From the NCBI GenBank assembly GCA_048886745.1, contig JBHLKK010000004.1:1-56727 (forward strand): a DNA stretch of 56,727 nt, written 5' to 3'. Shown here one piece after another: positions 26,155 to 32,958 of this stretch. The position numbers and the translations under genes are program-made. Each line of letters starts with the position of its first letter. The first letter of the stretch is position 1. The notes under the pieces are model-generated. The model saw nothing but the letters and a program-made list of their open reading frames with translations, ran no database searches and had not been told where the DNA came from. The stretch comes from Candidatus Hodarchaeota archaeon (GTDB lineage Archaea > Asgardarchaeota > Odinarchaeia > Odinarchaeales > JBHLKK01).

Positions 26155-26279
26155 ATAATTGTGGCGTCAATGATATTTTGAATCATAAACAAGTCTTTTA
26201 TGTCCACTAAACGGGATTCAGAAAAACGTTTTTATTACTTGCATCATATATGATGCCATATCGATTTATGGTGATTCCA

Positions 26280-26864
26280 ATGAATCCTTGGCTGGTAAAT
26301 ATCTTGGCTTGCCCGATTTGCAAATACCATCCTTTGAGAACCTATTTCTTCAGCTGGGAAACGTCGGATGAGCAGATTGAGCAGATCTCCAAAAAAGACT
26401 CAAAGGCTGATGTAAGCGACCGCCTTCTAGAATACCTAATTCGGGAGTTTGCAGAAGGTATTATTAGCCTTCCTGCTCTTGATGCTGTTGAAGATTTGAG
26501 TGGAAATGAAATGACTTCTCGGCTTGCGGCAAGCGCAAAAGATACTGCCATAAGGCTTGAGAAAGCCATTAAATCATCCAGAGAGAGTAGGGAAAAAATT
26601 CTGAAAGACTCCGAGCCTGATCTGAGTCTCGTATATTCTTATTTTCATTTGATTTCAGCAGCCGAGGGTCTTCTTCTATGTGATGGATGTGACAGGTGGT
26701 ACCCGATTGGTAATAGGGTTCTAGGAGTTCCTGAGATGTTACCGGACGATATGCGCCGCAAAAGGTCAGAAATTGCCTTCTTAAAAAAGTGGCAGAATTC
26801 TGTTCCTGAAAAAGCGTTGAATGAAGGTAAACCTTTTAATTTGGCTAAAATTTCTCAAGAATAG
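26280..26864 (+). CDS. trm112: Trm112 family methyltransferase activator with a long central helical insertion
   Basis: MNPWLVNILACPICKYHPL ... EGLLLCDGCDRWYPI...VPEMLPD split zinc-ribbon. GGTGA SD lies before ATG 26280. Confidence 0.85.
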   Translation: MNPWLVNILACPICKYHPLRTYFFSWETSDEQIEQISKKDSKADVSDRLLEYLIREFAEGIISLPALDAVEDLSGNEMTSRLAASAKDTAIRLEKAIKSSRESREKILKDSEPDLSLVYSYFHLISAAEGLLLCDGCDRWYPIGNRVLGVPEMLPDDMRRKRSEIAFLKKWQNSVPEKALNEGKPFNLAKISQE

Positions 26865-26998
26865 CTGAGTCAAGCTTTGCCTCGACCCTTTTTTCAAGTT
26901 CTTACTCTACTTTTCCATAAAAAGCTACCAATTTCCTTGAACACCCAGCAAAAAACTTTTTAAGGATTTAACCTTTCAAAATCTCAAAGGTTGAGATT

Positions 26999-29900
26999 AT
27001 GGCAATTATTGGGATAGAGCTCTGGGAGATTCTCCTATTCTCGGCTTCCTTAGCAATCTTCATGAATTTGTATGTATTGACCAACCGTGATTTGCGCGCT
27101 AGTCGAAAAGAGATGTGGTCTACTCAAGACTCCCTTGCTTTGACACTTCGTTATCTGTTCTTTGGCTCCCTGTTTGCCTTTCTGATTTCAGGTTTGCTAA
27201 TGTTTTTTGTTTGGATCTTGAACATTCTGTTTGAAGGTCTTGCATCTGCGATCTTGGGAATATCCCCAATAATCCCGCTACTATCTCTCATCGCGGTCAT
27301 AACCTTTGGTATTGCTTATGGGATAGCGAAGACTAGGCATTTGTACGATCTTGCTGATGAAGAGGTCTATGGGTTTAAACCTTGGTGGACTCGCCACCAG
27401 AGATTGCGAAAGGCCCTGAGCTTTCCTCTATATCTAAGCACCGGAAACTATCGTCGGTGGAGAAATGCTCAATTAACTCCAAGGAAGTTACGTAGACTGA
27501 AACGCGACATTGATAGGTCTTTTACAAAGACTCGTGATGATTTGATTGGGAGAGACCAAGAGTTCCAGACTATAATGTCTAGTATCTTTTATCACACGGT
27601 CAGAGATGAACGTATTCGCGAGGTTTTAAGGACCAATCCACCTCCCAAATTCTTTATTCTTAAAGGGATGACTGGAACTGGCAAAACGTTATTGGCCGAT
27701 GTATGTATGCGTGAAGGTGTGCTGAGAGGCATCAAGAACCAAACTAATGTTGTAGCGCTTTCGATAAAGGGCTCAGATGTTTTTAATCCATATTATGGTC
27801 AATCCGCAAGAAATCTTAGCTCGATCTTTAGGGCAACTCTTAATACTCCAAGCGTGTTGTTTTTCGATGAGTTCGATAGCTTCGCTAAGAGTGTAGCCAA
27901 GGGTGAATCTCATTGGGCTCAATTAGAGGACTTAAGAGTCCAGACTACATTCATTGAGGGATTAAAGAAAGTCTTAGATACCGAATCCAGGATTGTCGTT
28001 ATAGCAGCAACGAATTCCTATGAATCGGTTCGAGACGACATTAGAAGACGTGCCTTTATGATGGATCTTGATCAGAATGTAAGTAGCGAGATGTTGACGG
28101 CTGTATTGAACGCAGAATTGGAGAAGAATGGATGGACCTATCTTGATCCTAAAGAGATAATAGAAGCACTTGAGAGGTCAGTGAGCGTATACCGTCAAAC
28201 TCAGCTAACCCCTTTTGACATTATTGATGCTTGTCAAAAGGTAAGAAATCTCAAGATAGAGCCGATACGAAAGACAATATTCGAATTTGCAGAAACACCT
28301 GTAGACACGAAATACAGGGTTTCTATCGATGATTTCAGGACTATTGCCAGAGGTTTAAGGGGATATCTTGAAAAGGAGAAGAGTAGCGAGGTTATGACTT
28401 CTGTTCTCAGGATAAAACCTGCCGTAACCTATAGGGATGTTGGAGGCCTTTATGGCATAAAGGAAAAGATCTTCAAAAGCATATCTTTGAGTCTTCGTCC
28501 AGATTTGGCAACAAAACTTGGCTGGATCCCCCCGAAGGGCTTTATTTTGTGGGGAGAACCCGGCTGTGGCAAAACTCACATATCTAAAGCGATTGCAAAA
28601 GAGAATAATGCAACGTTTTTTTATGCACCTGCAGCTCAGCTCCTAATAAATGCAAAATGGGTGGGTGAACCTGAGAAGAATGTTCGAGACTTATTCGATT
28701 ATGCAAGGAAAGAAGCACCTAGCATCATATTCTTTGATGAATTTGATATCATTGCTGGTAAGAGAAGAGGCGATCCTGTAGGTGATAAAATCACTGCTCA
28801 GATACTAACAGAGTTGGATGGCTTGCAGCCTTTAGAAAATGTAATTGTTATTGCTGCTACAAACAAACTAAGTACCGTAGACGAAGCTATTATCAGCAGA
28901 TTTGAGCCAAACATGGTCGAAATCCCACTTCCTAGAAATGATGAGGAACGACTCGATATAATAAACATTCATCTGAATCGATACTTAACGCATCTTCATC
29001 CAGAAGTTACAGCGGATAAGGTAATCGGGATACTAAAGCGCCATCGTATGGTATCTCCAAGAGTTGTCGCTGAAATCATTAAAGAGGCTAATCGTTTGCG
29101 ATCCCAAGAGCTTTTTGCGGCCTGGGAATCCTATAAAGAGGCTAGCGGGGATTTTGTGTCTGAAATCTTCAAAGACGATTTTGACCGTCTTCTTCAGGTG
29201 TTGGAAATCATAAAAGGAGAAAGGAGCAAATCTATAGATATTAGAGAATTGGACAGTGAAAACTACAAGGTTCGTCTATATCACTTTGAAAAAGCAGCTG
29301 AGCTCTTAGAACAAGAGATTGATGCAGAGCTGATGGAGGCTCAGGAAAGTCTCATACCGGAAACAGCTGAGGTCGGCTTATCATATGGTCTTGCAACAGA
29401 TATTTCAGGAAGAAGAGGAATTATCCTAATTGTTGAGTGTTTGGTTAATAGAAATGGAAGTGGCAAGATTTCAGTAACGGGAGCAGCCAAAACCGCAGTT
29501 ATTGGCCCAGCCACAACTGTCGATGATCTAAGCGTCATTGAGAGTGCAACGAATGCTGTTACCTATGTCCGCCATTATATCAAAGATAAGCTAGGCATAG
29601 ATGGTTCTAAATTTGATTTTACTTTCCAAATAATAAGTCCACTGGAAGGGTCTGCTGGCATGGGAGTCAGTGGACCTAGTCTAGGGATTGCATTTAGCAC
29701 AGCAGCAATCTCTGAGTTGGCTAAGCTAGAGATGGAACCAAATGTGGTTATGACAGGTAAGGTTGATATTAAGGGTAATGTTGGTCCGGTTGGAGGATTG
29801 GGATGGAGAGGAACCGGTAAGTTCCTAGCTGCAATTAGGACTAAGAAGATTAAGATAAAGAAGTTCTTGATTCCTAGGTGGAATTATGAAAAGTCAAGTG

Positions 29901-30031
29901 ATGAATGGGCAATTCTTGAGGAGAAGAAAATTAAGATTATCCCCATCAATAGACAGATCGATGCTTGGACTACTACGTTTGACGTGAAAGAGGATGAAAT
30001 CCTAAGACAAATAAAACTCAGCTCTGAATAA
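26999..30031 (+). CDS. Membrane-anchored tandem AAA ATPase (Cdc48/p97-type) fused to a Lon S16 protease domain
   Basis: About 3 N-terminal TM helices. D1: GMTGTGKT/FFDEFD/ATN. D2: GEPGCGKT/KWVGE/FFDEFD/ATN. C-terminus: SGPSLG...VVMTGKVDIKGNVGPVGG...GKFLAA...FLIP. Confidence 0.85.
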   Translation: MAIIGIELWEILLFSASLAIFMNLYVLTNRDLRASRKEMWSTQDSLALTLRYLFFGSLFAFLISGLLMFFVWILNILFEGLASAILGISPIIPLLSLIAVITFGIAYGIAKTRHLYDLADEEVYGFKPWWTRHQRLRKALSFPLYLSTGNYRRWRNAQLTPRKLRRLKRDIDRSFTKTRDDLIGRDQEFQTIMSSIFYHTVRDERIREVLRTNPPPKFFILKGMTGTGKTLLADVCMREGVLRGIKNQTNVVALSIKGSDVFNPYYGQSARNLSSIFRATLNTPSVLFFDEFDSFAKSVAKGESHWAQLEDLRVQTTFIEGLKKVLDTESRIVVIAATNSYESVRDDIRRRAFMMDLDQNVSSEMLTAVLNAELEKNGWTYLDPKEIIEALERSVSVYRQTQLTPFDIIDACQKVRNLKIEPIRKTIFEFAETPVDTKYRVSIDDFRTIARGLRGYLEKEKSSEVMTSVLRIKPAVTYRDVGGLYGIKEKIFKSISLSLRPDLATKLGWIPPKGFILWGEPGCGKTHISKAIAKENNATFFYAPAAQLLINAKWVGEPEKNVRDLFDYARKEAPSIIFFDEFDIIAGKRRGDPVGDKITAQILTELDGLQPLENVIVIAATNKLSTVDEAIISRFEPNMVEIPLPRNDEERLDIINIHLNRYLTHLHPEVTADKVIGILKRHRMVSPRVVAEIIKEANRLRSQELFAAWESYKEASGDFVSEIFKDDFDRLLQVLEIIKGERSKSIDIRELDSENYKVRLYHFEKAAELLEQEIDAELMEAQESLIPETAEVGLSYGLATDISGRRGIILIVECLVNRNGSGKISVTGAAKTAVIGPATTVDDLSVIESATNAVTYVRHYIKDKLGIDGSKFDFTFQIISPLEGSAGMGVSGPSLGIAFSTAAISELAKLEMEPNVVMTGKVDIKGNVGPVGGLGWRGTGKFLAAIRTKKIKIKKFLIPRWNYEKSSDEWAILEEKKIKIIPINRQIDAWTTTFDVKEDEILRQIKLSSE

Positions 30032-31751: not shown

Positions 31752-32429
31752 ATGGAAACTGGTTTGTGGTTTACACTTCTTCGACTGGCTGAAATTGACA
31801 GACAGATTGGAATTTCTTCTGTGAAATTAGCTGGAGTACTTGGATTAAGTCAGCAAACTGCCTCAAGACATCTTCAAGAGCTTGAAAAGATAGGTTGGAT
31901 TACTCGTGAAGTATCTCGAAAGGGGCAGAGAATAGAAATTACTGAAACTGGTATGAATGCTTTAAGGACTGTATATATATCTTTAAGTACTATTTTTGAA
32001 GGCCATCTGGCTCCTTTTGAGATTAGAGGCGAGGTTTTTGAGGGAATGAGAGAAGGTGCCTATTATGTGAGTCGGGAAGGATATTTCAGACAGTTCAAGG
32101 AAAAACTGGGGTTTGAGCCTTACGCTGGAACACTGAATATTCGTATAAAGACACAAGATGATTTACGCGCAAGAAAAATGCTGGATCTGCTTCCTGGCAT
32201 CATAATAGAGGGATTCGCGAACGAAGGTCGATCTTTTGGTTCTGTGAAATGTCATCGAGTTACTGTTAATGGGAAGGTGGAAGGGGCTGTCATACTTATC
32301 AAACGAACCCATTATGGAAGCGATGTTCTGGAGATTATCTCACCAGTTTTCCTCAGAAAAGAACTAGATCTTAGAGACGGGGATACTGTAAGTCTGACTG
32401 TAGTTGCAGAGAAGCCCGAAAAGAAATGA
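31752..32429 (+). CDS. ribK: CTP-dependent riboflavin kinase with N-terminal wHTH
   Basis: LSQQTASRHLQELEK wHTH, GEVFEGMREGAYYV, FEPYAGTLN, RTHY, LEIISPVFLRKEL. Confidence 0.93.
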   Translation: METGLWFTLLRLAEIDRQIGISSVKLAGVLGLSQQTASRHLQELEKIGWITREVSRKGQRIEITETGMNALRTVYISLSTIFEGHLAPFEIRGEVFEGMREGAYYVSREGYFRQFKEKLGFEPYAGTLNIRIKTQDDLRARKMLDLLPGIIIEGFANEGRSFGSVKCHRVTVNGKVEGAVILIKRTHYGSDVLEIISPVFLRKELDLRDGDTVSLTVVAEKPEKK

Positions 32430-32442
32430 AGAAAAAAAATAA

Positions 32443-32958
32443 CTAGCGATTTGGATATTTCCTTTCCTTATTCAATATCTTTTTGATAATCTTCTGAGTA
32501 TGACACAACGGATGCTCATCGCATACCTTATCAATGCGGACAATCTTAACATTCAGTCCCTGACTTCTTAATTCATTTTGCACATCTTCTTCTGAAAATA
32601 CTTGATCTGGGCCCAAGACTATGATATCGGGCTTTAGTTCCTTCATTATCTCCAACAAGTCATCTGATTCACTACCAAGAATTGCCTCGTCAACATACTT
32701 CAAGCCTTTGACTACTGCAAGACGTTGTCTTTCTGGGATCACTGGTTTATGCCTCTTAATTCTCTCAACGTTTTTGTCTCTAGCGACTATGACAATCAAT
32801 TTTCCAAATTCTCTTGCCTTCTTAAGGAAGTATAAGTGTCCAGGATGGATTAAATCAAATGTTCCTCCAACGACTACTCTTTGTTTTTTAGTGCCAGACT
32901 CCATCTGTATGCGTCGCCTCCGGCTTTGTGATGTCTTCTCAATCATTAAAATAGTCAA
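32443..32958 (-). CDS. ribL: Archaeal FAD synthetase
   Basis: VVGGTFDLIHPGHLYFL, VIVARD, PDIIVLGPDQ. Confidence 0.9.
   Translation of the reverse strand: MTILMIEKTSQSRRRRIQMESGTKKQRVVVGGTFDLIHPGHLYFLKKAREFGKLIVIVARDKNVERIKRHKPVIPERQRLAVVKGLKYVDEAILGSESDDLLEIMKELKPDIIVLGPDQVFSEEDVQNELRSQGLNVKIVRIDKVCDEHPLCHTQKIIKKILNKERKYPNR

Follow-up and report, generated by a model that had tools for sequence, protein, structure and literature searches.

In a 56,727-nucleotide stretch of DNA from Candidatus Hodarchaeota archaeon (contig JBHLKK010000004.1 of assembly GCA_048886745.1; the whole stretch is called the window below), the gene at 26999..30031 on the + strand was found to encode a protein of 1010 amino acids (aa) in which three transmembrane (TM) helices, a linker, two AAA modules (D1 and D2), a second, helical linker and a Lon protease domain follow one another in a single chain. 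The protein is the fused form of a widespread archaeal two-gene module, made up of a gene for a 3-TM anchor and a gene for the AAA-AAA-Lon part. It is likely to be a membrane-tethered, ATP-dependent serine-lysine protease, probably hexameric, of an undescribed archaeal family.

Domain layout and catalytic motifs

The gene starts with ATG, and its layout was established with Pfam, NCBIfam and an AlphaFold2 (AF2) model for which 100 homologues were used as input (mean predicted local distance difference test score, pLDDT, 82.3). Pfam detected PF00004 (AAA) twice (E 1.2e-53) and PF05362 (Lon_C) at residues 786-968 (E 2.7e-15), and no Pfam family matched residues 1-213. In this N-terminal part, a Kyte-Doolittle scan revealed a hydrophobic block at residues 3-112, with cores at about aa 6-28, 45-72 and 90-110, and the model placed three long helices at 8-35, 42-77 and 91-112, the region N-terminal to D1 being helical only; after the anchor came two AAA alpha/beta-plus-lid modules and then a Lon-type alpha/beta domain. 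Thus, the architecture of three TM helices, two classical AAA modules and a Lon domain, proposed in an earlier sequence-only reading of this DNA, was borne out by Pfam, hydropathy and structure prediction, and the motifs listed there were all intact and in place. More than 100 full-length homologues combining these Pfam domains (E = 0 to 1e-174) came up in a protein search, which excludes a chance origin of the architecture.

The membrane-anchor module comprises aa 1-122 (26999..27364, + strand, as for all parts of the gene) and ends in YGIAKTRHLYDLADEE, as delimited by hydropathy, AF2, BLASTP and alignment. It is followed by a basic helical linker at aa 123-200 (27365..27598), defined by AF2 and conservation and lacking a Pfam family, in which 18 K+R stand against 6 D+E. 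W129 and W130 of this linker were invariant and W154 near-invariant (at least 90%) in a 100-sequence alignment, the same one on which all conservation described below was scored.

The two AAA modules were identified by Pfam, motifs, profiles and trees. D1 (aa ~201-470; 27599..28408) is a divergent classical AAA module with Walker A GMTGTGKT at 223-230 (27665-27688; K229), pore loop PYYG at 264-267 (27788-27799), Walker B VLFFDE at 286-291 (27854-27871; D290/E291), a sensor-1 ATN at 337 (aa 337-339) and the arginines R349-351 of the second region of homology (SRH). D2 (aa ~471-712; 28409..29134) is a conventional classical AAA with its lid, and carries Walker A GEPGCGKT at 519-526 (28553-28576; K525), pore loop KWVG at 553-556 (28655-28666), Walker B IIFFDE at 576-581 (28724-28741; D580/E581), a sensor-1 ATN at 620 (N622) and the Arg finger R634, within an SRH that is shortened in the clade of the window protein (…ISRFEP…). 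K229, D290, E291, Y266, G267 and R349-351 of D1 were invariant, as were K525, T526, D580, E581, G556, N622 and R634 of D2.

A helical linker at aa 713-785 (29135..29353), with AF2 helices at 717-742 and 760-785 and conserved residues H762, A766, L770 and E783, joins D2 to the Lon (S16) proteolytic domain at aa 786-1010 (29354..30028), which was recognized by Pfam, alignment to LonB and conservation. The active site consists of GPS at 892-894, with the catalytic Ser894 (codon 29678-29680), and GKFLAA at 940-945, with the catalytic Lys941 (codon 29819-29821) placed after a GWRG insertion. When solved structures were searched with phmmer, the protease domain of Archaeoglobus LonB (1z0b, E 1e-10) was matched with its catalytic Ser and Lys opposite S894 and K941 and a 4-residue gap opposite GWRG, giving a Ser-to-Lys step of 47 versus 43 (46 vs. 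42 residues between). The longer spacing had already been attributed to this insertion, and the alignment to solved LonB domains agrees. G892, P893, S894, G940 and K941 were invariant, as would be expected if purifying selection maintained an active dyad.

The anchor is a separate protein in unfused relatives

N-terminal TM segments were confined to Odin-type homologues of ~1010 aa, whereas the other homologues were soluble proteins of ~900-930 aa, those of TACK archaea including a clade A (~60% identical to the window protein) and a clade B (~40%). The unfused loci compared were L001, L003, L005, L114, the Asgard outlier L092 and those of 20 sampled TACK genomes (L094-L113), among which L094 and L001 hold one and the same protein, and L100 and L003 one and the same anchor. 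In 24 of 24, a multi-TM gene lay upstream on the same strand and overlapped the start of the AAA-AAA-Lon gene (by ~26 nucleotides) or abutted it.

The upstream anchor proteins of these loci matched no Pfam family. However, BLASTP with window residues 1-130 aligned the whole 3-TM module to a Bathyarchaeia anchor (36% identity, E 1e-11) and to a Nezhaarchaeales anchor (33%, E 6e-10), and the clade A anchors share with the window N-terminus the motifs RW(S/T)xxD(S/T)xAL..RYLF and YG.xK.R..Y(E/D)..DEE. With the anchor tested from clade B (L005), BLAST found no match to the window N-terminus. On this similarity the separate anchors are judged homologous to window aa 1-122 for clade A only. On the other side of the junction, the linker at aa 123-200 is the counterpart of the sequence with which the unfused ATPase proteins begin (…FKPWW…). 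The Bathyarchaeia anchor has the end …EWYELIDEEE*, and the ATPase starts in another, overlapping frame (MNLLMKKNNNEEFKPWW); in the window there is one frame, …HLYDLADEEVYGFKPWW…, and the DNA around TTTAAACCTTGGTGGA is near-identical to that of Bathyarchaeia. A membrane-anchored ATP-dependent protease, as first proposed, is still the best reading of this gene. Its architecture is not a one-off, since the split module is widespread.

In most of the TACK anchors (among those at L003:3205-4026 and L096-L113), a signal peptide and a beta-sandwich of ~110 residues and 10 strands precede the three TMs (AF2 pLDDT 85.4); for the beta-sandwich no Pfam family was found and a fold search against the PDB returned non-significant Ig-like matches only. 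This outer domain is missing from the window's fused anchor, from the Odin-order anchors and from the Bathyarchaeia anchors. The signal peptide and beta domain of the TACK anchors, together with the positive residues that the window anchor has in the loop 29-44 and after TM3, point to an N-out, C-in topology, in which case the ATPase would be cytoplasmic. For the split forms, an obvious candidate interface would pair the acidic tail of the anchor (…IDEEE) with the basic linker at the ATPase N-terminus.

A continuous fused frame was present in seven genomes, from two families of the window's order, including a closed Odinarchaeum chromosome of 1,418,269 bp and, from projects independent of one another, contigs of 230 kb and 712 kb. 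Fused proteins 95% and 89% identical to the window protein are encoded on a 231-kb contig and in another assembly, respectively, and the fused homologues in metagenome-assembled genomes (MAGs) of Odinarchaeia are 1012-1015 aa long and 62-70% identical.

Distribution and phylogeny

In the window's own phylum the gene was detected in 8 of 301 sampled genomes. Seven of these carriers belong to the window's genus and to the Odinarchaeum genus, where the gene is fused wherever the N-terminus is on the contig, and the remaining Asgard carrier (one genome) has an unfused copy that is 40% identical. The gene was not found in the cultured Promethearchaeum MK-D1. It was present in 55 of 401 sampled TACK genomes and in none of those sampled from three euryarchaeal phyla (0/201, 0/151 and 0/151; 0/503 in total).

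Apparent bacterial members were rejected. The 'Acidoferrales bacterium' contig (L114; GCA_035517955.1, DATIYC010000125.1) carries TFIIB, tRNA-intron endonuclease, SUI1 and actin, and the 3.7-Mb contig L005 (ERZ25039519 contig_5992) also encodes TFIIB, an archaeal tRNA-intron endonuclease, SUI1 and an actin-family protein. Both are archaeal DNA mis-binned into bacterial MAGs, and the soil bacterial labels on other clade B proteins are similar.

An exhaustive search with residues 701-1010 revealed further divergent soluble branches with the same architecture, none of them with a TM fusion, in which GPS and 46-48 residues between Ser and Lys were kept save in P0161 and P0166. In these two proteins the GPS motif is not recognizable (…RASLGLA… and …DGGSIGLA…), and their protease site may be altered or inactivated, to judge from the sequence. 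Other divergent AAA-AAA-Lon proteins (P0135, P0138, P0140, P0159 and P0163; 967-1067 aa) have long soluble N-terminal extensions, and the D2 SRH has the canonical form RPGRFD in P0135, P0138 and P0140 at least, unlike the shortened SRH of the window clade.

In a tree of full-length proteins from which the anchor columns had been removed, the fused proteins formed one clade (Shimodaira-Hasegawa-like approximate likelihood ratio test, SH-aLRT, 100) nested in the unfused clade A and sister (95) to a Bathyarchaeia-type group, whose separate anchor is of the short, 3-TM-only kind. The monophyly of the fused proteins and their nesting in clade A indicate a single derived fusion event in the Odin-order lineage, and on the sequences sampled the fusion is confined to the Odinarchaeum order. 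The tree also suggests that the gene was acquired from, or is common to, a Bathyarchaeia-like lineage and that it is not an Asgard hallmark.

Relation to known unfoldases and ATP-dependent proteases

When tested against NCBIfam, the top model for the protein was CDC48 (TIGR01243) with 204.8 bits, far below its cut-off of 802.65, and the scores were also below the cut-offs for LonB (TIGR00764; 60.8 bits vs. 516.6), LonA (TIGR00763; 64.6 vs. 608) and FtsH (TIGR01241; 145.7 vs. 600). As controls from the same genome, the true Cdc48 reached 1073.7 bits with its own model and PAN 538. By these profile cut-offs and by domain content, the protein does not belong to LonA, LonB, FtsH or Cdc48, in agreement with the sequence-only reading that its architecture fitted none of the four.

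Cdc48 is nevertheless its nearest known match in fold and profile. The top solved matches in Foldseek were p97/Cdc48 protomers (~615 columns, E ~1e-26), and, as in Cdc48, VAT and p97, two classical AAA modules stand in tandem, with D1 aligning to D1 and D2 to D2 of TIGR01243. When each module was scored alone, D1 reached 53 bits, aligned to the CDC48 D1 region, and D2 reached 160 bits to PAN and 155 bits to the CDC48 D2 region. The aromatic pore loops of the window protein (PYYG/KWVG) are similar to those of the Cdc48 of the same genome (KFYG/KWVG). In contrast to Cdc48, the window protein has no CDC48_N/CDC48_2 N domain (no Pfam hit, and only helices were modelled there), its protease is fused instead of being a separate 20S particle, and no HbYX-like C-terminal tail is present, which fits with a protein that does not dock on 20S. 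Separate trees for D1 and D2 had been proposed at the outset; both domains were placed in a tree of single AAA modules, whose outgroups included some Cdc48, PAN and FtsH-like paralogues from the genome-contig scan, and the family D1 (100/100) and the family D2 (99/100) each formed a clade of their own outside Cdc48 D1/D2, PAN and Vps4. Therefore, the label 'Cdc48/p97-type' that had been given to the protein is right for the nearest fold and profile but not as membership (205 vs. 803 bits, no N domain, own D1 and D2 clades), and the window protein is not a Cdc48.

With LonB (MEROPS S16.005; Archaeoglobus fulgidus, Thermococcus onnurineus, Haloferax volcanii) the protein shares the joining of an ATPase and an S16 Ser-Lys protease in a single membrane-bound polypeptide, and the LonB P domain is its top sequence match among solved structures (1z0b). 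However, LonB has one HCLR-clade AAA+ with a TM hairpin inside it, whereas the window protein has two classical-clade AAA modules and all its hydrophobic helices are N-terminal to D1, with none between Walker A and Walker B; likewise, no Pfam hit to AAA_32 (PF13654) or to the LonB LID (PF20436) was obtained. The active sites differ as well. LonA and LonB have exactly 42 residues from Ser to Lys, the residue before Ser being Pro in LonA and Asp in LonB (PMC9569914), and the LonB and LonC references that we extracted showed G-D-S and 42 residues, whereas the AAA-AAA-Lon family has Pro before Ser and a gap of 46 (clade A) or 48 (clade B). This Pro-Ser is the sole feature in common with LonA, as described in PMC9569914, and the PF02190 LON domain of LonA is missing from the window protein. 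LonBA of Firmicutes (Bacillus subtilis 'LonB') is likewise anchored in the membrane at its N-terminus and has a Pro-Ser centre of A type (PMC9569914), but in LonBA as in LonC there is just one AAA+ module, of Lon type (degenerate in LonC), and 42 residues lie between Ser and Lys.

A LonC-type protein of 802 aa, with LonC_helical, AAA_32, LonB LID and Lon_C domains, is encoded in the same genome as the window (contig C6:48203-49546; L117:580-2988). It is soluble, has a degenerate Walker A (GEPGTGRM) and an intact GDSAS…K dyad, and is present in the window's genus and missing from the Odinarchaeum genus. LonC is known mainly from thermophilic bacteria.

FtsH resembles the window protein in layout only, that is, in the order of N-terminal TM anchor, classical-clade AAA and C-terminal protease and not by homology of anchor or protease, and the two would also share a geometry in which the ATPase ring faces the membrane and the protease is distal, as well as a putative role in membrane-protein turnover. 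FtsH has one AAA, an M41 zinc metalloprotease and two TMs with a periplasmic domain, whereas the window protein has two AAA modules, an S16 serine protease and three TMs, and gave no Peptidase_M41 hit in Pfam. In ClpAP and ClpCP, two stacked ATPase rings feed a self-compartmentalized serine peptidase, as proposed here for the window protein; the Clp proteins belong to other AAA+ clades, use a separate peptidase of S14 fold and form soluble complexes.

No description of an AAA-AAA-Lon architecture was found in the full-text literature, subscription-only papers and MEROPS lying outside this search; PMC11188069, PMC5070193, PMC2605481 and PMC9569914 do not describe it, and a 2008 survey of serine proteases lists Lon_C architectures without AAA-AAA-Lon among them. 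Database names of the homologues are limited to 'AAA family ATPase' and 'SpoVK/Ycf46/Vps4 family'. By this literature search, which returned no named family, the anchored AAA-AAA-Lon proteins may be an undescribed archaeal family.

Other proteolytic systems in the carriers

The genome of the window encodes five 20S subunits, PAN, a CdvC/Vps4-like ATPase and two Cdc48-sized tandem-AAA paralogues, of which one was scanned and confirmed as Cdc48. As the true Cdc48, PAN and the 20S subunits are all encoded separately, the window protease is an additional system.

Canonical LonB scored above the cut-off in none of seven genomes of the window's order and in none of 44 TACK genomes, whereas it did so in five of five euryarchaeal genomes tested; at E <= 1e-10, TIGR00764 gave no match in Promethearchaeum syntrophicum MK-D1 or in Nitrosopumilus. 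In the closed Odinarchaeum genome, the window-type gene was the sole Lon-domain match. Thus, canonical LonB appears to be largely confined to euryarchaeal lineages among the sampled genomes. According to a review, the proteasome and LonB are the only ATP-dependent proteases of archaea, FtsH being absent (PMC4343526). The window protein probably fills the cellular role of LonB, namely ATP-dependent proteolysis at the membrane in an organism without FtsH.

Proposed mechanism and alternative explanations

From the above we infer hexamer formation, ATP-dependent proteolysis, membrane localization, a direction of threading and a class of substrates, as follows. Six copies would assemble into a stacked hexamer held in the membrane by a ring of 18 TM helices, so that from the membrane outwards the order would be the TM ring, the basic linker with its two tryptophans, the D1 ring, the D2 ring and, furthest out, the Lon chamber. 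The aromatic pore loops PYYG of D1 and KWVG of D2 would grip proteins that lie in the membrane or close to it, and ATP hydrolysis in both rings would unfold and pull these proteins and thread them straight into the Lon chamber, where Ser894 and Lys941 would cleave them. Such double-ring threading would be as in Cdc48/VAT-20S or ClpAP, with the N-to-C order of FtsH. In most carriers, those of TACK, the anchor would take part as a separate small protein, and in the Odinarchaeum order as part of one fused chain.

We also propose, more tentatively and with somewhat less than even confidence, that Archaea have in this family a third, hitherto unrecognized class of energy-dependent protease, next to LonB and to the proteasome with its PAN or Cdc48. 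In TACK archaea and Odinarchaeia, which lack FtsH and canonical LonB alike, it would act as a 'dislocase-protease' of the membrane, where a dedicated anchor would keep in place a Cdc48-like double ring, covalently joined to a Lon chamber, that extracts membrane proteins and destroys them. The term 'ERAD-like' (for endoplasmic reticulum-associated degradation), used in the sequence-only reading, goes too far for this and is a loose analogy, as neither a tagging system nor a retrotranslocon or channel was found; FtsH and LonB are closer functional analogues.

Several observations weigh against a double-ring protease of this kind. D1 is very divergent (53 bits alone, on a branch of 2.9 substitutions) and could be a regulatory or assembly ring instead of a motor, whereas in D2, R634 is the sole remaining arginine of the usual SRH set. 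In the protease domain, K941 would have to reach S894 across the 4-residue insertion. Finally, the family was found in ~14% of the sampled TACK genomes, and other tested TACK genomes have neither this family nor LonB, so that a replacement of LonB by the AAA-AAA-Lon family is only suggestive.

The same patchy spread (14% of TACK genomes, one Asgard order and one other genome) would suit an accessory function better than an essential housekeeping one. It favours an unlikely alternative in which the protein is a processing or regulatory protease that serves one or a few specific envelope or membrane substrates, such as a signalling or surface-structure protein, and not a general quality-control enzyme. 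The beta domain would then act as the sensor, in keeping with the signal peptide and the ~110-residue beta-sandwich that most TACK anchors hold outside the membrane. However, the fused anchor of the window and the Bathyarchaeia anchors have no outside domain, the beta domain itself has no specific structural relative, and no conserved neighbouring gene for a substrate or regulator was seen at the loci compared.

It is very unlikely that the protein is an unfoldase or disaggregase whose Lon-like domain serves as an oligomerization or substrate-binding scaffold, as in RadA/Sms and ComM. The insertion right before the catalytic Lys does differ from every characterized Lon, and the divergent P0161 and P0166 lack a recognizable GPS, but the five active-site residues listed above are invariant in 100 homologues and the pattern of GPS, 46-48 residues and GK is kept in divergent branches.

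A role as effector of an anti-phage or other conflict system, such as other defence proteins of AAA-plus-protease or Lon-like type have, is harder still to credit, since the PADLOC hits in its favour, to IetA (138 bits) and TRIP13, span the generic AAA core only and score below PAN, and since the gene is single-copy, has housekeeping neighbours (SUI1, TFIIB, tRNA-intron endonuclease, riboflavin kinase) and a phylogeny that follows lineages and not mobile islands. Lastly, that an assembly error or frameshift joined a separate anchor gene to an ATPase gene is effectively refuted by the continuous frame in seven genomes of two families, closed chromosome and independent contigs included, and by the absence at the junction of the ~26-nucleotide overlap of the unfused genes, which does not fit a simple frameshift; the fused protein is not an assembly chimera, a possibility that had been raised when it was first noticed.

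If the gene does encode a membrane-tethered AAA-AAA-Lon protease, the Lon protease domain would have been recruited by two different AAA+ clades, which bears on module swapping in the evolution of AAA+ proteases. To our knowledge, AAA-AAA-Lon is the sole case of a double-ring classical AAA unfoldase and a peptidase in one polypeptide, and the single chain of the Odin order would be the simplest natural form in which to study structure and mechanism. With a split version in TACK and a fused one in the Odin order, the module is a natural experiment on the interaction between anchor and motor. As LonB was missing from every one of the 44 TACK genomes examined and from the Odinarchaeum order as a whole, the family stands as a concrete candidate for the removal of membrane proteins in these organisms. 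Its occurrence in an Asgard archaeon also contributes to the picture of proteostasis tools close to the origin of eukaryotes.

Upstream region and neighbouring genes

A possible promoter and ribosome-binding region precedes the protease gene at 26956..26995 (+), with a TATA-like cTTTTTAAGG at 26956-26965 and GGTTGAG at 26989-26995, as read from the sequence. The TATA-like box and the 134-nucleotide gap after the upstream gene weakly suggest that the protease gene has its own promoter.

The neighbours in the window comprise a family 2 glycosyltransferase (GT2), an NAD-dependent epimerase, a Trm112-like protein, a sulfatase, a CTP-dependent riboflavin kinase and a RibL-like enzyme. The epimerase, the Trm112-like protein and the sulfatase recur in the same-genus locus only, and none of the window's neighbour genes recurs in loci of the Odinarchaeum family or of TACK. 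Accordingly, the hint at a function in quality control that had been drawn from nearby glycosylation genes lost its ground, such a context being restricted to the same-genus locus and absent from the sister family and all TACK loci.

The gene directly upstream of the protease gene, at 26250-26864 (+), encodes the Trm112-like protein (204 aa) and is kept in this place in the same genus only. The 40-position Pfam zinc-ribbon profile spans residues 15-153 of this protein, and the halves of its zinc ribbon appear to be split by an insertion of ~100 residues. At 31752-32958, the CTP-dependent riboflavin kinase, which has an N-terminal winged-helix (MarR-like) domain, is convergent with the RibL-like cytidylyltransferase (FAD synthase type), and the pair are ordinary archaeal flavin-cofactor genes.

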